Source: a virus (taxonomy: Duplodnaviria; Heunggongvirae; Uroviricota; Caudoviricetes). From it: DNA of 4,748 bases. The stretch covers positions 1-4,748 of the IMG/VR virus record IMGVR_UViG_2582580933_000017. One strand, 5' to 3'. The notes below the pieces were generated by a model. It searched no databases. It was not told the DNA's origin and saw only the letters and a program-made list of their open reading frames with translations. Each line of letters opens with the position of its first letter. Within the stretch, counting starts at the first letter, position 1. Of the stretch, positions 1 to 4,748 are shown one piece after another. The translations under genes and the position numbers were made by a program.

Positions 1-99
1 TTCCGCTTCTTCTGCTGGCAGTACAACGTTGCTACCAGGTCCGTATGTTTCGCGCCACTGCTTGATTGTCAGTAGTCGCTCTTTGGTAATAGTGATCAT
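1..99 (-). CDS. hypothetical protein, N-terminal fragment (gene continues beyond the left edge)
   Basis: Minus-strand ATG at 99..97 overlaps the TGA stop (98..96) of the upstream gene (ATGA). A purine-rich AAGGAA lies about 8 nt upstream. The frame stays open for 33 codons to position 1 (MITITKERLLTIKQWRETYGPGSNVVLPAEEAE...). No family recognised. Confidence 0.45.
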   Translation of the reverse strand, partial: MITITKERLLTIKQWRETYGPGSNVVLPAEEAE

Positions 100-611
100 G
101 CCGCGTTTCCTTCTTTCTTATTAACAATTACACCGTCATATATTTCATTAAGGTGCCCTCTCAACTCCATGCGCCTTAATGCAGATAACATGTAATCGCA
201 TTCAACCTGCTTATTTCCAGTAAATGGCTTATCGTCAGGATTACCCCAACAGCAATTACCCTTGGGCCACCCATGTACTTTCCGTACTCTTCCGTTAACA
301 ACGTGAAGTAATCCCCAGCCAGGTGGTAAATCCTCAACTGAAATAATTCCCGGCTCACTAATAAAGAATCGCCAGTCGCCCATTCCAAGAGATGGATTTT
401 TACGAAAACGCTTTTTTCTATCTGCCAACAAGTCAGCACGAGAACACTTCGCCTCTATCAGGCATGATGCTGAATTTCTGAATCCCATAGCATCTGGCTG
501 TTCTCCGGTACTGGTTACAGCTATAAAGCGGTCATGAAAACAAACCTTGAACCCGTTGCGCTTAAGGAACTTATACGCAATCTGACAGAGTTCGCGGTGT
601 GTTAACGCCAT
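96..611 (-). CDS. PD-(D/E)xK nuclease-fold protein (restriction-endonuclease-like), 171 aa
   Basis: ORF-track frame 96..683, trimmed to the ATG at 611..609, which has an AAGGAGAG Shine-Dalgarno 4 nt upstream and sits 1 nt after the upstream stop (TGATATG). The protein (MALTHRELCQIAYKFLKRNGFKVCFHDRFIAVTSTGEQPDAMGFRNSASCLIEAKCS...) has a helix-then-strands N-terminus and a PD...(E)xK signature (QPD followed 12 residues later by EAK). Fold call is by motif only. Confidence 0.7.
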   Translation of the reverse strand: MALTHRELCQIAYKFLKRNGFKVCFHDRFIAVTSTGEQPDAMGFRNSASCLIEAKCSRADLLADRKKRFRKNPSLGMGDWRFFISEPGIISVEDLPPGWGLLHVVNGRVRKVHGWPKGNCCWGNPDDKPFTGNKQVECDYMLSALRRMELRGHLNEIYDGVIVNKKEGNAA

Positions 612-612
612 A

Positions 613-801
613 TCACTCTCCTTTAGTGCGCAAGTGGTTTTTCCAGCGGTTTTGCGCCGCGCTGGGCTTTTTGCAAAAACCACAATCCATCATCCCGTAA
701 TATTTCATCAACCCCATCCGTCGGTTGCTGAGTCTCACCCACTGCCAGACGCCAGGAGCGTTTCTACGAACTAACAGAATCTTTGCTTTACGGTTTTTCA
801 T
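613..801 (-). CDS. small basic hypothetical protein, 62 aa (MKNRKAK family, copy 1)
   Basis: ORF-track ORF. Its ATG (801..799) overlaps the stop of the upstream paralogue (ATGA). Its C-terminus ...RTKGE is encoded by AAAGGAGAG, which doubles as the Shine-Dalgarno for the next gene. Lys/Arg-rich. Paralogous to 798..974. Confidence 0.55.
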   Translation of the reverse strand: MKNRKAKILLVRRNAPGVWQWVRLSNRRMGLMKYYGMMDCGFCKKPSAAQNRWKNHLRTKGE

Positions 802-802
802 C
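782..802. repeat. 21-bp near-exact direct repeat (copy 1) at the start of the MKNRKAK paralogues; second copy at 955..975
   Basis: TTACGGTTTTTCATC is identical at 788..802 and 961..975, extended by TTTGC(T/C) upstream (1 mismatch in 21). It corresponds to the ATGAAAAACCGTAA (MKNRK) starts of the two tandem paralogues on the minus strand. Confidence 0.75.
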
Positions 803-974
803 TTACAGCGTACCCTTTCTTCCGCCTGTTCTGTGACGCAGTAGGCTTACGCTTTGCGGCAAAAGCCACCTGACCAAATGGATGGAGTACCGCTATCTTA
901 TGGTTGCTAATAACCAGCTCCACCACACGCACAGGTCGCTGTAAAAAAAGTCGTTTTGCCTTACGGTTTTTCAT
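798..974 (-). CDS. small basic hypothetical protein, 58 aa (MKNRKAK family, copy 2)
   Basis: Not in the ORF track (below cutoff); found by manual translation: MKNRKAKRLFLQRPVRVVELVISNHKIAVLHPFGQVAFAAKRKPTASQNRRKKGYAVR. ATG at 974..972 with AGGAGA 8 nt upstream; stop TGA at 800..798. Shares the N-terminal MKNRKAK and the C-terminal KP(T/S)A(S/A)QNR(R/W)K motif with the 613..801 product. The DNA has a matching 15-bp exact repeat at both start sites. Confidence 0.5.
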   Translation of the reverse strand: MKNRKAKRLFLQRPVRVVELVISNHKIAVLHPFGQVAFAAKRKPTASQNRRKKGYAVR

Positions 975-1147
975 CGCTTTGCTCTCCTGCGTCTCTTTGC
1001 TGCTCGTCGTGCCGCTGCAATACCGGTATGGCGGCGCTTTGGTGCTGGGGTGATGTTGTCAGCCATCAGGACCTGTGGCTTTGCAATTAGCGCAGAAGCC
1101 CAAAAACGAGTCGGGTACGGTAACAAGCCGATACATGCCACACGCAT
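971..1147 (-). CDS. small hypothetical protein, 58 aa, with a poly-Arg/Lys C-terminal tail
   Basis: Not in the ORF track; found by manual translation: MRVACIGLLPYPTRFWASALIAKPQVLMADNITPAPKRRHTGIAAARRAAKRRRRAKR. ATG at 1147..1145 with a canonical AAGGAGG Shine-Dalgarno 6 nt upstream, overlapping the upstream TAA (TAATG). Stop TGA at 973..971 overlaps the next ATG (ATGA). It fills what would otherwise look like a 170-bp intergenic gap. An internal in-frame ATG at 1066 is an alternative start. Confidence 0.45.
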   Translation of the reverse strand: MRVACIGLLPYPTRFWASALIAKPQVLMADNITPAPKRRHTGIAAARRAAKRRRRAKR

Positions 1148-1635
1148 TACTCACCTCCTTTGATGCGAATGCCTGTTGCAATGCTGTTTATGATGCTGTC
1201 AGTGCATGGGGTAGAAAGCTGGGCATCTCCAGCAATTTTCATGACATCAACATCTGCATATCGAATACCGAGGTGTATCAGACCGGCTATACCTGACTTA
1301 AGCCGAGCATTTTCCATAAACAGATCCTTTGCCCGCTGTTTTTCTGCCTCAAGCTCAACGCGCAACTTCCCTACCGTTAGCGCAATATCCTCGTTCTCCT
1401 GATCGCGGGATTTGATGTATTGCTGGTTTCTTTCCCGTTCATCCAGTAGTGCCAGCACGGTTTCTGGTCCGGCCAGAAATTTGAAGGCGTTGAGCGCATC
1501 AATATCCACACCGTAATCTTTAAGTTCCTGTTCACTTAACAAATCATCATCAGCTGGCAACATTAACAGGCGTTCCATTGCTGGAATTGCACGTTCCGCC
1601 GCCTCACGCAGTGCCTGATAGTCAATCTTGCTCAC
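1147..1635 (-). CDS. coiled-coil phage protein, resembles the Ead/Ea22-like family (from memory, unverified)
   Basis: ORF-track ORF of 162 aa. GTG start at 1635..1633 preceded by AAGGAGGCAACCA, overlapping the upstream stop (GTGA). N-terminus SKIDYQALREAAERA and a charged coiled-coil-like middle (ERERNQQYIKSRDQENEDIALTVGKLRVELEAEKQRAKDL). C-terminus ...IKGGE is encoded by AAAGGAGGTGAG, which gives the Shine-Dalgarno for the next gene. Confidence 0.65.
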   Translation of the reverse strand: MSKIDYQALREAAERAIPAMERLLMLPADDDLLSEQELKDYGVDIDALNAFKFLAGPETVLALLDERERNQQYIKSRDQENEDIALTVGKLRVELEAEKQRAKDLFMENARLKSGIAGLIHLGIRYADVDVMKIAGDAQLSTPCTDSIINSIATGIRIKGGE

Positions 1636-1648
1636 TGGTTGCCTCCTT
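1631..1648. repeat. 18-bp exact direct repeat (copy 1) at a gene junction; second copy at 1951..1968
   Basis: CTCACTGGTTGCCTCCTT occurs at 1631..1648 and 1951..1968, with imperfect similarity for about 19 more bp (13 of 19 match). On the minus strand each copy encodes the end of one gene (GGNQ stop), an AAGGAGG Shine-Dalgarno and the GTG start of the next. Confidence 0.8.
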
Positions 1649-1955
1649 TTCGAAGCTGGGCGGCGATATCTTCGAGAACGCCATCAGAGAATGAGCGGTC
1701 AAAATCGCCTTCCGGCGCATTAGCCATAAACTCAGTAGAGGTAAGAATCATCCGGGCAATATCCGCGGCGTTCTTCGCGGTATCATCAATAAAACCAGCT
1801 TCCCAGGCAGCCAGCATTCTGTTCGCCACAAAATAAGCGCCTTCCTTGCGTGCTTCAGTCTTCACTTCAGCTAGAAAAGCATCGGTATGGCAATGGAATG
1901 AGGCGTTATTACCCACAATTTCACGCAAGCACATCATGTAAAAACGGTTACTCAC
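1632..1955 (-). CDS. hypothetical protein, 107 aa
   Basis: ORF-track frame 1632..1991, trimmed to the GTG at 1955..1953, which has the same AAGGAGGCAACCAGTGAG context as the next gene and overlaps the upstream stop (GTGA). The ATG at 1991 has only a poorly spaced GGGAG and would overlap the upstream gene by about 40 nt. C-terminus ...IAAQLRKGGNQ is shared with the 1952..2191 product. Confidence 0.6.
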   Translation of the reverse strand: MSNRFYMMCLREIVGNNASFHCHTDAFLAEVKTEARKEGAYFVANRMLAAWEAGFIDDTAKNAADIARMILTSTEFMANAPEGDFDRSFSDGVLEDIAAQLRKGGNQ

Positions 1956-1968
1956 TGGTTGCCTCCTT
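1951..1968. repeat. 18-bp exact direct repeat (copy 2) at a gene junction
   Basis: Same sequence as 1631..1648; see that entry. Confidence 0.8.
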
Positions 1969-2191
1969 GGCGGAGTTGCGCTGCGATGCATGAAAAAAAA
2001 GACTCCCGAGTGTGACAGTTAAGAGCTGGTGCGAACGCCGCGTTAAGAACGGCGGCATCACAGCCGTCATCAATATAGAGCGCAATTTTTTTCTCCAGGC
2101 GCGCTTTGGCTTCCTGCAACTGCATACCCCGGCACGCACGCGGGATATAATCAGCAATTTGAGCGATAGCTTTTTCGTTCTGTTTAAACAT
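1952..2191 (-). CDS. hypothetical protein, 79 aa
   Basis: ORF-track ORF. ATG at 2191..2189 with GAGGTG 4 nt upstream, overlapping the end of the upstream gene by 8 nt. C-terminus ...IAAQLRQGGNQ; its last codons CAAGGAGGCAACCAGTGA carry the Shine-Dalgarno and GTG start of the next gene. Confidence 0.55.
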   Translation of the reverse strand: MFKQNEKAIAQIADYIPRACRGMQLQEAKARLEKKIALYIDDGCDAAVLNAAFAPALNCHTRESFFSCIAAQLRQGGNQ

Positions 2192-2387
2192 GCTTCACCT
2201 CGATAGGCTTGATGGTGTCTAACAGCAGTCGGCGGCGCGTATTTTCTGCAAAATGGCGGCGTCCAGTTTCTTTGTGGTAAAACTCGTTTTTGCCAACGAC
2301 CCACATCCGCTCTGTTTGGTGCAGTTTTTTTACCTTCGGGCCATCTTTGGTGATCACGGTACCGGTATGGGTTTTTACGATTGTCAT
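2184..2387 (-). CDS. hypothetical protein, 67 aa
   Basis: ORF-track ORF. ATG at 2387..2385 overlaps the TGA of the PAPS-reductase-like gene (ATGA), with GAAGAGG upstream. Basic protein (MTIVKTHTGTVITKDGPKVKKLHQTERMWVVGKNEFYHKETGRRHF...). No family recognised. Confidence 0.55.
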   Translation of the reverse strand: MTIVKTHTGTVITKDGPKVKKLHQTERMWVVGKNEFYHKETGRRHFAENTRRRLLLDTIKPIEVKHV

Positions 2388-3262
2388 TCCACTACCTCTT
2401 CGAATTTCAACTCCAATTGGTCACCCCAGATTTCACATGATTCGGAACACGAACCAGTATCAAACCGCTTGGCCAGCACCATCGCCTGATACAAATTTCT
2501 GTAGTCACTGTCGGCATACATTCTGGCAATCCCGTCAAGCGTCAGGTGGCCACGGTACATAACGTCTTTACCTGTTCTGCGATGACCATCCCTGACGTGT
2601 TTGCCTGTAACCAGTTCATTAAAAACCCGCATCAGACCTGGTTCGTCTTTACATGCAAGCCCCAGCTTTTGCGTTGACTTTTTGATGCAAAAAACACAGT
2701 TCCCGAGGTGCTCCGGGATTTGCAAATCAAAAGGTTGTTTTCGCCACCACCGGATAACATCCGACTTATCAAAATCTGACAGTTCGGCAAGATACCGGAC
2801 GCCCGGTTTCGGTTTCAGCCTACGGGGTTCGTCCGCACGAATACCCAGCCATGTGATGTAATTCCCTCGCCCAAAATGGTCATCGCAATATTTCGTGAAA
2901 GGGGTGAGTTTTAGCCTGTCAGTACAGAACGCGCCGCCGATGTATGGCGTACCGTACTTTTTAACCATGTCCATAAACGGTTTAAGCACCGGCATTCGCG
3001 TCTGAATATCCTTTGGTTCCCATTCCGTATAACCATTTGGCTGCCCAATTTCTGGATTTATATCGACCTGCAACACCGTTAGCGGTACGTTCCAGAACTT
3101 CACAACCTCACGAATAAAGCGATACGTCAGAGGATGTTCACAGCCGGTATCCATAAAAATGAAATGGACGCTAGCGCCAGCTTTTCGCTGTGCTTCCATC
3201 AGATGAACGAGATAAGCCGATGTTCGTCCACCTGAAAAGCTGACGACTTGATGCATACTCAC
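2384..3262 (-). CDS. phosphoadenosine phosphosulfate (PAPS) reductase family protein, PP-loop ATP pyrophosphatase fold (CysH/DndC-like)
   Basis: ORF-track ORF of 292 aa. N-terminal PP-loop VVSFSGGRTSAY (SGGxxS). The stretch FMDTGCEHPLTYRFIREV matches the CysH-family DTG...ETYRFI region. C-terminal cysteines (GNCVFC and GSCSESC) could bind a metal or Fe-S cluster. Start is GTG at 3262 (AGGA 7 nt upstream) or ATG at 3256; both in frame. Confidence 0.85.
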   Translation of the reverse strand: MSMHQVVSFSGGRTSAYLVHLMEAQRKAGASVHFIFMDTGCEHPLTYRFIREVVKFWNVPLTVLQVDINPEIGQPNGYTEWEPKDIQTRMPVLKPFMDMVKKYGTPYIGGAFCTDRLKLTPFTKYCDDHFGRGNYITWLGIRADEPRRLKPKPGVRYLAELSDFDKSDVIRWWRKQPFDLQIPEHLGNCVFCIKKSTQKLGLACKDEPGLMRVFNELVTGKHVRDGHRRTGKDVMYRGHLTLDGIARMYADSDYRNLYQAMVLAKRFDTGSCSESCEIWGDQLELKFEEVVE

Positions 3263-3265
3263 GGT

Positions 3266-3844
3266 TTATTCCTGAATGCGCTTAAACTCGATTACCCATA
3301 CCAACGGGTTAGATAGCCAGTTATCCTGCCCGTAAATACTGCGCCAGATATCACCAAAACCAACGCGATAAACAGCTTCAGATGGCGTAATCTTGTACGT
3401 CGCCGGAGTTGCGCCTTCTGCTTTAGCATCTGCCTCGCTCATGTCATGCAGCCGTTCCACACGCACGTCGGTAATTTCCAGAAGAATGCGCGATGCCCAG
3501 CGCGGCATGTGAATTGATGGCGTCCACTTTTCTGATACTGGTTTATTACAAACCTCGACCGGAACCCGGTGCGTTTGTTCTGTCCAGGAGTTACGCACGC
3601 TTGCGCGATAAACCAGCGTTGCGACGTCCGTCGCTTTGCCATGTACCCGGTAGGTTTCGCGAACCCAAATACGATCGCCCGGTTGACCATATGGACAATG
3701 CTTGGCAAGCAACTCTGCGGCCACTGCCCGTCCATAGAATTTTTCTTCAACAATCCTGCGAGTCTGTGTTTTATTCCCGCCAAGAATTGCCCGGACCATC
3801 TCATCGTTAAAAATCATGCCGCGCTCTTTCACTTCGCCTTTCAT
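3266..3844 (-). CDS. ASCH-domain protein (PUA-like fold), YqfB-like ends with a large internal insertion
   Basis: ORF-track ORF of 192 aa. N-terminal ILGGNKTQTRR matches the ASCH GxKxxExR-type motif (recalled E. coli YqfB: ILAGRKTITIRD). C-terminal VWVIEFKRI matches the YqfB end FYVIEFKCL. ATG at 3844 has an AAGGGGGA Shine-Dalgarno; an alternative in-frame start is the ATG at 3817 (MIFNDEM...), where the ASCH alignment begins. Confidence 0.75.
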   Translation of the reverse strand: MKGEVKERGMIFNDEMVRAILGGNKTQTRRIVEEKFYGRAVAAELLAKHCPYGQPGDRIWVRETYRVHGKATDVATLVYRASVRNSWTEQTHRVPVEVCNKPVSEKWTPSIHMPRWASRILLEITDVRVERLHDMSEADAKAEGATPATYKITPSEAVYRVGFGDIWRSIYGQDNWLSNPLVWVIEFKRIQE

Positions 3845-3853
3845 ACATCCCCC

Positions 3854-3940
3854 TTACCCATGTGCGACGATGCCGCCAAAAGTGATAGAGAACAGCCAGA
3901 AATAGATCGCGGCCATAATGATTTTGAATGCCGTGTTCAT
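3854..3940 (-). CDS. small hydrophobic (single predicted transmembrane helix) peptide, 28 aa
   Basis: Not in the ORF track; found by manual translation: MNTAFKIIMAAIYFWLFSITFGGIVAHG. ATG at 3940..3938 with AGGAG 8 nt upstream (3953..3949). Stop TAA at 3856..3854; its last codons plus GGGGGA form the Shine-Dalgarno of the ASCH gene 9 nt downstream. Confidence 0.45.
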   Translation of the reverse strand: MNTAFKIIMAAIYFWLFSITFGGIVAHG

Positions 3941-3967
3941 ATTTTCAGCTCCTGTGATTGATTGGAT

Positions 3968-3999
3968 ACATGCCGCGCCTTGCGGCATGTTTTAATTTT
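3968..3999 (+). terminator. plus-strand-oriented intrinsic-terminator-like hairpin (also a perfect palindrome that could be an operator)
   Basis: Perfect 9-bp inverted repeat ACATGCCGC (3968..3976) / GCGGCATGT (3982..3990) with loop GCCTT, followed on the plus strand by TTTAATTTTC. No T-tract follows it on the minus strand. It lies in the gap between the HAD gene stop (4039) and the small-peptide Shine-Dalgarno (3953). Confidence 0.4.
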
Positions 4000-4023
4000 C
4001 ACTTTCTCTGTTTTAAAAATCAA
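3995..4023 (-). promoter_or_regulatory. candidate sigma70-type promoter for the minus-strand genes downstream
   Basis: On the minus strand: TTGATT (4023..4018), a 17-nt AT-rich spacer, then GAAAAT (4000..3995). This would start transcription at or inside the palindrome at 3968..3990. Weak consensus match (4/6 and 4/6); not verified. Confidence 0.25.
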
Positions 4024-4038
4024 GATTTATTAGAGCAA

Positions 4039-4545
4039 TTATTGTTGATGAAGAAGTGCATTTTCATATTCCCTGACCATTAACGTAAGTACGCCGTGAC
4101 TCCTGAAAACACGCGCCACTTCAATCTTATCTTCCAGCGCGAACGCAATTTTACTTAGACCAATTTTCTTCAGGAGATCAATCTTTGCAGGGCCGTCATT
4201 TCTGTCATCGGTGGCAGGACGCATAGATAGCAAAGGCTCAGCCCCATTTGTTACGTGCTTACGCAGCCAGGCTCGTGTTTTATCCCTTGCGATCTCACAG
4301 CGCCCGGTTACAAACCAGACCGTGTAAACGTTAAATAACTGGCGCACCATATCAATAACCGGAGTGATGGGAGTATCGGTGTCACAGGCGAGATTAAACT
4401 CGTTCCAGTCCTTTGTTAATGCACCTTTACCTGGTGGCGGAAGCAAATGCAGTCTGTCTTCAGTTGCCTCTGATATTGTTCCATCAATATCGACTATGAC
4501 GATATACGGACGTTCCTGGTGTGCGTGTTTATTGAAAATACTCAA
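4039..4545 (-). CDS. HAD-superfamily phosphatase (nucleotidase or polynucleotide 3'-phosphatase-like)
   Basis: ORF-track ORF of 168 aa. HAD motif I IVIVDIDGT (DxDGT) near the N-terminus and a motif II-like VWFVTGR. Start is TTG at 4545..4543 with a GAGGAGGG Shine-Dalgarno 3-4 nt upstream; there is no in-frame ATG further upstream. Confidence 0.75.
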   Translation of the reverse strand: MSIFNKHAHQERPYIVIVDIDGTISEATEDRLHLLPPPGKGALTKDWNEFNLACDTDTPITPVIDMVRQLFNVYTVWFVTGRCEIARDKTRAWLRKHVTNGAEPLLSMRPATDDRNDGPAKIDLLKKIGLSKIAFALEDKIEVARVFRSHGVLTLMVREYENALLHQQ

Positions 4546-4563
4546 ATGCCCTCCTCATTGGAC

Positions 4564-4598
4564 GAAAAAAATGCTGGTGGGCGCACTCCACCAGCATT
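4564..4598 (-). terminator. rho-independent terminator, minus-strand orientation
   Basis: Perfect 11-bp inverted repeat AATGCTGGTGG (4570..4580) / CCACCAGCATT (4588..4598) with a 7-nt loop. On the minus strand it is followed by a run of 7 T (plus-strand A-run 4564..4570). It lies between the stop of the upstream partial gene (4618) and the HAD Shine-Dalgarno (4556..4549). Confidence 0.65.
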
Positions 4599-4617
4599 AA
4601 AAGTGACACTGTAACTA

Positions 4618-4748
4618 TCAGCGGACGTAAATAGTGCCGCCGTTCTCTTTTTCCCATGCATCGCTACGTGCATAGCAAACATCGAGAAGTCTTCTTGCCG
4701 CTGTTTCCTCTAAACCCAATTCGACAACCAACTGCTCATGACGGCGGG
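4618..4748 (-). CDS. hypothetical protein, C-terminal fragment (gene begins beyond the right edge)
   Basis: Minus-strand frame open from the window edge for 42 codons (...RRHEQLVVELGLEETAARRLLDVCYARSDAWEKENGGTIYVR) to TGA at 4620..4618, just upstream of the terminator. No family recognised. Confidence 0.45.
   Translation of the reverse strand, partial: RRHEQLVVELGLEETAARRLLDVCYARSDAWEKENGGTIYVR

Follow-up and report, generated by a model that had tools for sequence, protein, structure and literature searches.

The window analyzed here is a DNA stretch of 4,748 nucleotides (positions 1 to 4,748 of IMG/VR virus record IMGVR_UViG_2582580933_000017, Caudoviricetes), and the gene under study is a minus-strand open reading frame (ORF) that runs from an ATG at 3844 to 3266 and encodes 192 residues. 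Its product was found to be a member of the ASCH/PUA-like β-barrel superfamily, and comparison with the Escherichia coli N4-acetylcytidine (ac4C) amidohydrolase YqfB (PDB 1TE7, 9KYF-9KYH) supports its placement specifically within the YqfB type. The protein belongs to a very large, mostly phage- and prophage-borne ASCH branch that comprises PHROG 874 together with PmgT of phage P1. Neither the fold nor, strictly, the membership in the superfamily is new, as some database records of relatives already say "ASCH." What appears to be new is the Thr-type catalytic set of YqfB predicted within the PHROG 874/PmgT family, a distinct expanded architecture missed by Pfam and NCBIfam, the identity of a YqfB-type family with P1 pmgT, and a measurable yet minority link of the family to DndC/SspD-like enzymes. 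With regard to function, we see about an even chance that the gene encodes an accessory early hydrolase of the YqfB type, whose substrate would be a base modified by N-acylation or in some other way, probably within nucleic acid.

The two conserved ends by which an earlier reading of the DNA made without database searches (the sequence-only reading) had likened the protein to YqfB were both recovered by translation, ILGGNKTQTRR at residues 20 to 30 (3755-3787) and VWVIEFKRI at residues 182 to 190 (3275-3301). For the superfamily assignment, an AlphaFold2 model was built from 63 diverse relatives, with a predicted local distance difference test score (pLDDT) of 90.8 and a predicted template modeling (pTM) score of 0.84. 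The modeled β-barrel could be superposed on solved ASCH domains, and its core superposed on E. coli YqfB in Foldseek with a template modeling (TM) score of 0.70 to 0.72, normalized to YqfB. The Pfam ASCH model PF04266 matched 30 of the 63 family members, every one below threshold, with a best E value of 0.0011. When a profile of 228 family sequences was compared with YqfB in HHalign, the alignment ran end to end, covering 102 of the 103 YqfB residues at 28% identity; the E value was 1.3e-4 in global and 1.5e-3 in local mode as a single comparison, and the HHalign probability was only 17 to 27%. The YqfB sequence used was identical to that of PDB 1TE7 at 103/103 residues. The earlier suggestion of an ASCH protein with YqfB-like ends was therefore borne out by both approaches: a PUA-like barrel was obtained, and the motif similarity did not prove to be spurious. 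Two other solved ASCH proteins, both uncharacterized, were 15 to 18% identical to the protein, namely, those of Lactobacillus crispatus (3S9X, 159 residues) and Enterococcus faecalis (EF3133; 1T62, DUF984, 163 residues), but ~78 residues of the protein were still without a structural counterpart in them. The NCBIfam and PADLOC libraries returned nothing for the ASCH protein, and a weak Pfam match to Cas_TM1802 (E = 0.072) was dismissed as noise.

Within ASCH, the YqfB type was assigned because the octapeptide G-x-K-x-x-T-x-R and an equivalent of the YqfB catalytic Glu74 are present. YqfB has the same octapeptide, followed by a helix with the catalytic Glu and a C-terminal V-I-E-F-K strand. In the window protein, the octapeptide (G23-N-K25-T-Q-T28-R-R30) lies on strand 2, conforms to the superfamily pattern G-x-K-x-x-[E/T/S]-x-R, and is 95 to 99% conserved in the family. 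The profile alignment, an earlier local alignment, and the secondary structure of the model agreed on the residue equivalences, with K21, T24, R26, and E74 of YqfB corresponding to K25, T28, R30, and E143 and with Y89, H70, and D27 corresponding to Y171, D139, and I31. In the 228 relatives, which extend down to ~30% identity, represent many phyla, and underlie all residue conservation values given here, K25, T28, R29, R30, and E143 were conserved at 98, 98, 99, 99, and 100%, respectively, the last position being Glu in 227 and Asp in 1. By alignment, the Lys-Thr-Glu triad and the oxyanion-hole Arg of the YqfB type would thus all be present. In YqfB, the K21A, T24A, and R26A substitutions abolish activity and E74A lowers it 100- to 1,000-fold, and the proposed mechanism employs Thr as the nucleophile, Lys as the base, Glu as the acid, and Arg as the oxyanion hole (PMC6972931).

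A survey of ASCH motif classes identifies G-K-[T/S]-R as the octapeptide class of YqfB-type ac4C amidohydrolases and lists viruses only under the Glu-type (G-K-E-R) class (10.64898/2026.02.27.708502). The Glu-type proteins, including Thermus thermophilus TthASCH, human EOLA1, and the ASCH domain of TRIP4, are reported tRNA ac4C erasers (10.64898/2026.02.27.708502) and thus act on a base within tRNA. They have the superfamily, the fold, and the octapeptide Lys and Arg in common with the window protein, whereas they carry Glu where it and YqfB carry Thr, have a different proposed mechanism, and are shorter, without the family expansions.

The sequence-only reading had counted about 90 extra residues between the conserved ends of YqfB. 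As arithmetic this holds (192 versus 103 residues), but the added length was found to be distributed over several expansions, of 16, ~49, 13, and 6 residues, and not to form a single insertion; the middle of the protein, with the catalytic-Glu helix, is also homologous to YqfB. The first expansion, between strands 2 and 3, varies in length and sequence across the family and is followed by a conserved C50-P-x-G-x-x-G56-D57. The main insert, together with 6 and 3 more residues in the preceding hairpin (66-71 and 74-76), accounts for the ~49 residues between strands 3 and 4 and ends in a W-x-PSIHMPRWASR motif that YqfB lacks. This is the most conserved motif of the family (W107, 93%; P109, 97%; S110, 95%; H112, 89%; M113, 99%; P114, 98%; R115, 96%; S118, 96%; R119, 99%) and was picked as the best family search pattern. 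The third expansion is the least confident part of the model (pLDDT of 72 for block 151-160) and is variable in the family, and the last 6 residues lie at 173-178. Conservation of at least 92% was also observed for G53, G56, D57, W60, V61, R62, E63, Y79, W107, R115, R119, E123, R128, E130, R131, D139, W167, W176, N179, W183, and F187, of which the last two, in the C-terminal strand, reached 96 and 98%.

PHROG 874, of unknown function in PHROGs, was matched over residues 1 to 192 with an E value of 1.8e-83. When 1.84 billion cluster representatives were searched exhaustively with HMMER, 42,792 clusters (50% identity) had E values of 1e-3 or lower, and for 31,455 the E value was 1e-10 or lower. 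As the listed full-length members are typically 180 to 250 residues long, a length about twice that of YqfB is the norm in this family, to which P1 PmgT belongs, and is not peculiar to the gene, as the sequence-only reading, correct about the length itself, had implied. A Pfam scan of the nine longest relatives, P1 PmgT included, found no additional domain. Relatives were found in phages of Escherichia, Salmonella, Klebsiella, Yersinia, Pseudomonas, Vibrio, and Burkholderia, as well as of Myxococcus (Mx8 p14), Salinibacter, Paracoccus, Agrobacterium, and Clostridium, and in genomes of many phyla, among them Pseudomonadota, Myxococcota, Desulfobacterota, Planctomycetota, Bacteroidota, Chloroflexota, Acidobacteriota, and Actinomycetota. 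Nucleotide matches were present in 444 of 5,426 complete E. coli genomes, nearly all on plasmids, and this allele was near full length in 28 of them. A few GenBank/PGAP records name relatives "ASCH domain protein" or "PUA-like RNA binding protein," while others are named "morphogenetic" or "virion."

Several observations weigh against a YqfB-type enzyme. BLASTP gave no alignment of the protein with YqfB. Neither phmmer nor the 63-sequence family profile gave any match among all PDB sequences, and the protein itself scored 15.3 bits (E = 0.034) with PF04266, under the 21.2-bit gathering threshold. Two invariants of the YqfB clade, Asp27 and His70, are not kept, being replaced by Ile31 and Asp139, and the column of Tyr89, although Tyr171 here, is divided between 102 Asn and 101 Tyr among the 228 relatives. 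The protein also differs from the ~100-residue, single-domain size with significant YqfB similarity that marks that clade. Conserved Lys, Glu, and Arg alone cannot tell an enzyme from a reader and are common in ASCH proteins without an assigned role. Charge would not imply nucleic acid binding either, since the isoelectric point of 9.1 calculated for this protein compares with a family median of 6.5 (4.7 for YqfB), and the family is not uniformly basic. Finally, ac4C is not known from all host lineages of the family, which makes a strictly ac4C substrate doubtful.

In the preferred reading, Thr28 would be the nucleophile, Lys25 the base, and Glu143 the acid, with Arg30 forming the oxyanion hole, and the enzyme would cleave an amide bond at the exocyclic amine of a base, with N4-acylcytosine as the default guess. 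While the fold and family follow from the model and the profiles, it is from this residue set that we infer a hydrolase activity. The Arg/Trp-rich expansions are expected to enlarge the binding surface, so that the substrate would probably be a base within RNA or DNA and not a free nucleoside. Action on nucleic acid is plausible because all 19 ASCH proteins assayed in a 2026 preprint removed ac4C from tRNA (10.64898/2026.02.27.708502) and because ASCH-like barrels occur in ZmASCH, a single-stranded RNA ribonuclease of Zymomonas mobilis, and BapA, a 5-hydroxymethylcytosine DNA glycosylase, although the catalytic residues and chemistry of these two differ (cleavage of a phosphodiester and a glycosidic bond, respectively). 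Whereas yqfB is a chromosomal housekeeping gene, the window gene is a phage-borne early gene, which would be expressed only once C1 repression is lifted. It would be an accessory gene of an early anti-defense/DNA-modification hotspot, not a morphogenetic one, and its product would usually act alone; only some phages, among them the present one, would pair it with a PP-loop enzyme of the DndC/SspD-like kind.

The genomic setting of the gene was examined by comparison with P1. The window comes from a P1-like IncY phage-plasmid of E. coli. Across 97% of its length it is 99.3% identical to plasmids of ~95 kb such as CP098993, and parts of it are 95 to 97% identical to P1, P7, and JL22. P1 PmgT (AAQ14065) matched the protein in tblastn with 43% identity over 99% of the query (E = 2e-41), and the gene lies in the same slot as P1 pmgT, where it follows pap and opens the Op88 operon, which is controlled by C1. 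The pap gene, operator, promoter region, and 5' end of the gene are 95 to 98% identical to those of P1, with the order kept; within this region, a 301-nt stretch comprising the end of pap, Op88, the P1-annotated promoters, a small ORF, and the first 15 codons is 98% identical, and the first 31 codons of the gene also show 98% identity to P1. The operator is the same in sequence and position as that annotated in P1 (AF234172) and had one match in the window, compared with 0.02 expected by chance; judged by its sequence, Op88 puts the downstream genes under prophage repression.

Farther into the gene, from its middle to the C-terminal part, the allele is not that of P1. In blastn searches with the window, P1 matched at 95.4% over 3753-4748, the JL22-like P1-type allele (L010) at 97.1% over 3410-4748, and a viral contig (L017) at 97.7% over 2381-3520, PAPS-reductase gene included. 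The overlap of the last two segments falls in the most conserved coding segment, the PSIHMPRWASR-ILLEITDVRVERL core, and these identities indicate that the gene is a recombinant of JL22-like and L017-like alleles. A mosaic joint at the ASCH/PAPS-reductase intergenic boundary, where similarity to Shiga toxin (Stx) phages ends at 3261, was considered and dropped, as the L017 block extends into the ASCH gene. The region from pmgT to humD is one of eight hypervariable regions in P1-like phage-plasmids, and the cluster there is replaced in JL22 (PMC9603915). Genome-wide CRISPR interference found P1 pmgT to be nonessential, with a plating efficiency of 0.98 (PMC10695390), and the literature on pmgT gave essentiality and variability data only.

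The P1 protein itself (L001, AF234172, 5001-5930) is 309 residues long and diverges from the family right after ...SANPWV. At the P1 locus, the terminal WVIEFKR strand is absent in every reading frame, and a tail of ~70 residues overlaps pmgU. A rearranged C terminus or a defect in the P1 copy is therefore possible, which would weaken the nonessentiality of pmgT in P1 as evidence on intact alleles.

To survey neighborhoods more widely, 80 viral-contig loci and 80 genome loci encoding relatives were sampled, of which 137 were scored with Pfam for immediate neighbors. The most frequent of these encoded DksA/TraR zinc finger proteins (15 loci), followed by DNA methyltransferases of five families (C5, MT-A70, Dam, D12, and N6_N4; 11 in total), RecT (9), PAPS_reduct, Ead/Ea22, and pap (6 each), DUF5131 (3), and Lar (2). 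In other phages, the gene lies among the early genes recT, exo, cII, O/P, xis, and int. ASCH domains have been reported to be fused or operonically linked to N6-adenine methyltransferases in bacteria and phages (PMC4738411), a linkage with which our reading of the gene as an independent accessory gene of an early DNA-modification/anti-defense hotspot fits. Genes of the DUF5131 (phage Gp37/Gp68) family also recurred at or near the family gene (L107, L008, L092, and others), the immediate-neighbor cases being three genome loci, and lay within 1 to 2 kb downstream of it in Burkholderia phage BgManors32 and Agrobacterium phage Atu_ph08; C5 and N6 DNA methyltransferases recurred alongside these DUF5131 genes.

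Against this background, other explanations of the protein were considered. Its PUA-like pocket might bind a modified base in DNA or RNA, such as N6-methyladenine or methylated cytosine, without catalysis, shielding sites or modulating a methyltransferase or restriction. PUA-like domains (SRA, EVE, YTH, and ASCH) are classic readers of modified bases, and both the reported linkage to adenine methyltransferases and the 11 of 137 loci with an adjacent methyltransferase are in keeping with such a role. However, more than 90% of loci lack that neighbor, all four YqfB catalytic residues are kept at 98 to 100% in relatives of ~30% identity, and among them is the Thr nucleophile that sets the class apart from the commoner Glu-type octapeptide; a noncatalytic reader therefore seems rather unlikely to us. 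It appeared quite improbable that the protein is a plain salvage enzyme, whose hydrolysis of free N4-acetylcytidine or N4-acylcytosines would supply the pyrimidine pool while the phage replicates. Although its catalytic residues and core are those of YqfB, which acts on free ac4C with a kcat/Km of up to 2.8e6 M-1 s-1 (PMC6972931), E. coli already has yqfB, the ~85 extra and partly invariant Arg/Trp-rich residues would be needless for a nucleoside substrate, and the gene is accompanied by DNA recombination and modification genes, not by those of nucleotide metabolism. A morphogenetic or virion protein, as implied by the database names "PmgT, putative morphogenetic function," "Morphogenetic protein," and "virion protein," has only these inherited names in its favor. 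The name is without support, because the promoter is a C1-repressed sigma-70 promoter and not a late one, the neighbors elsewhere are early genes (the Yersinia phage "virion protein" copy sits between cII and replication gene O), and knockdown of P1 pmgT leaves plating unreduced (PMC10695390). In addition, the fold is that of an enzyme or reader, and this explanation is already largely refuted and, in our view, very improbable.

The sequence-only reading had also suggested that the substrate might be a modified nucleotide made or removed by the neighboring PP-loop enzyme. In its strict form, an obligate module of two enzymes, the ASCH protein would make, trim, or remove a modification set by the adjacent DndC/SspD-like member of the PAPS-reductase family. 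This neighbor starts 9 nt after the ASCH stop codon, in the same C1-controlled operon, and matched Pfam PF01507 (E = 2.7e-9), PHROG 424, and, in PADLOC, SspD (2.1e-13) as well as BrxP and DndC; it contains a CVFC pair and, at its C terminus, a cluster of cysteines (GSCSESCE). Phage PAPS reductases are candidate anti-defense or DNA-modification genes, and one has been reported to help evade Dnd (PMC13551039). A PF01507 gene lay within 5 kb in 10 of the 160 sampled loci (2 viral and 8 genome), a count that covers genes scanned against Pfam and excludes an additional PP-loop gene of another type (L094). The two genes were directly adjacent in 6 of these 10 (L017, L120, L133, L135, L165, and L172), that is, in 6 of the 137 scored loci, with a binomial P value of ~0.0014 compared with random placement among ~15 ORFs per locus. 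The adjacent pairs came from distant taxa (Rahnella, Acinetobacter, Azotobacter, Desulfobulbus, a Magnetococcales metagenome-assembled genome, and an enterobacterial viral contig) and occurred in both gene orders, four of them with overlaps of 4 to 8 nt, and the C-terminal third of the ASCH gene travels with the PAPS-reductase gene as the 97.7%-identical block shared with L017. On the other side, no PF01507 gene was found within 5 kb of the family gene in 150 of the 160 loci. In P1, pmgT is followed by pmgU/V without a PAPS-reductase neighbor, and the JL22 allele precedes other genes, including a methyltransferase, while Stx-converting phages carry the same PAPS-reductase module (92.6% identity) behind an unrelated gene of 147 codons and without the ASCH gene. 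Clustering in a hotspot could by itself yield such adjacency, as C5 methyltransferases and DUF5131 adjoin the gene at similar rates. We therefore consider an obligate module distinctly unlikely and read the PAPS-reductase-like enzyme as a recurrent but minority partner, occasional and not required, so that the link proposed earlier is retained only in this weakened form. In Clostridium phage Maintenon (L090), a PAPS-reductase-like gene at 884-1884 is annotated as two consecutive, overlapping coding sequences (884-1492 and 1489-1884), ~1.1 kb upstream of the ASCH-family gene; a frameshift or a split of the gene may account for this.

An accessory YqfB-type hydrolase thus remained the preferred reading, and a broader form of it can be sketched, more as a speculation than as an expectation. 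The PmgT/PHROG 874 family might be widespread phage erasers, that is, YqfB-type amidohydrolases whose expansions reach bases inside nucleic acid (for example, tRNA ac4C or an N-acyl- or amide-bearing DNA modification), used early to reprogram translation or to counter modification-dependent defense and sometimes coupled to the DndC/SspD-like PP-loop enzyme in a two-step pathway of base or backbone modification. YqfB-type (Thr-nucleophile) ASCH amidohydrolases have so far been described from cellular organisms, and the predicted Thr-type catalytic set is now seen to be central to a phage gene family that ranks among the larger uncharacterized ones and has no Pfam or NCBIfam model. P1 pmgT thereby gains a concrete biochemical hypothesis in place of a misleading "morphogenetic" label. 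If the proteins do act on tRNA or DNA modifications, their action would be an early phage function of a new type, within an anti-defense/DNA-modification hotspot; a redundant nucleoside hydrolase would be an ordinary finding, and nothing so far would surprise a specialist.

The start codon bears on the length of the protein, for which the sequence-only reading had allowed 183 to 192 residues. Residues K6-E7-R8, upstream of Met10, are conserved at 68, 87, and 89%, and a GGGGGA Shine-Dalgarno-like run lies 3 nt 5' of the ATG at 3844. The 183-residue version from Met10 is unlikely because the conserved K-E-R would be lost. The upper figure of 192 residues is preferred; the alternative is 188 residues from a GTG at codon 5, which would give MKER, the usual N terminus of the family. 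The features of the gene and its surroundings are collected in Table 1.

Table 1. Positions of the ASCH gene, its parts, and its neighbors in the window
Feature	Position	Strand	Remarks
pap	4545-4039	-	
C1-repressor operator OpmgT/Op88, ATTGCTCTAATAAATCT	4023..4039	-	Overlaps pap stop codon
Conserved 28-residue hydrophobic small ORF (MNTAFKIIMAAIYFWLFSITFGGIVAHG)	3854..3940	-	AGGAG ribosome-binding site; between operator and ASCH gene
Coding sequence, PmgT-like ASCH protein of predicted YqfB type, 192 residues	3266..3844	-	Stop codon included
ASCH octapeptide G23-N-K25-T-Q-T28-R-R30, YqfB type	3755..3778	-	Aligns with YqfB G19-R26
Expansion 1, residues 34-49, 16 extra between strands 2 and 3	3697..3744	-	hhalign gaps; model helix 43-47
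Expansion 2 (main insert), residues 81-119	3488..3604	-	hhalign gaps; model H87-90, E91-95, H115-118
Family signature motif W107-T-P-S-I-H-M-P-R-W-A-S-R119	3488..3526	-	End of expansion 2; not in YqfB
Recombination crossover zone inside ASCH gene	3410..3520	-	Overlap of JL22-like (3410-4748) and L017-like (2381-3520) segments
Glu143, equivalent of YqfB catalytic Glu74, in helix D139-A-x-A-E143-G144	3416..3418	-	hhalign 121-150 versus YqfB 52-81
Expansion 3, residues 150-162, 13 extra	3359..3397	-	hhalign gaps; gap-rich columns
C-terminal strand L181-VWVIEFKRI190	3275..3304	-	Matches YqfB QFYVIEFKCL
PAPS-reductase-like PP-loop protein, SFSGGRTS motif	2384..3256	-	Start codon as annotated in CP098993

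The 28-residue small ORF lies within the 301-nt stretch that is 98% identical to P1, where no coding sequence is annotated; it could encode a leader peptide or else a membrane protein of small size. Just upstream of this ORF, a perfect 10-bp GC-rich hairpin followed by TTTTAATTTTC was observed at 3968-3990 (+). It is terminator-like on the plus strand, antisense to the operon, while on the minus-strand mRNA it would fold as a 5'-leader hairpin, and it is kept in P1. To the left of the PAPS-reductase-like gene are small lambdoid "ea"-type genes, Ead/Ea22 included. Two small basic ORFs, 613-801 and 798-974 (-), overlap in tandem and encode 62 and 58 residues, both starting with MKNRKAK; they are hypothetical proteins in CP098993 and resemble a tandem duplication of a small gene. 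The 195-residue ORF at 96-683 (-) matched PHROG 9263 and PHROG 631 (no function assigned) and had no Pfam, NCBIfam, or PADLOC hit. By eye, it shows a D...E-A-K arrangement (DAMGF...LIEAKCS) that recalls PD-(D/E)xK nucleases.

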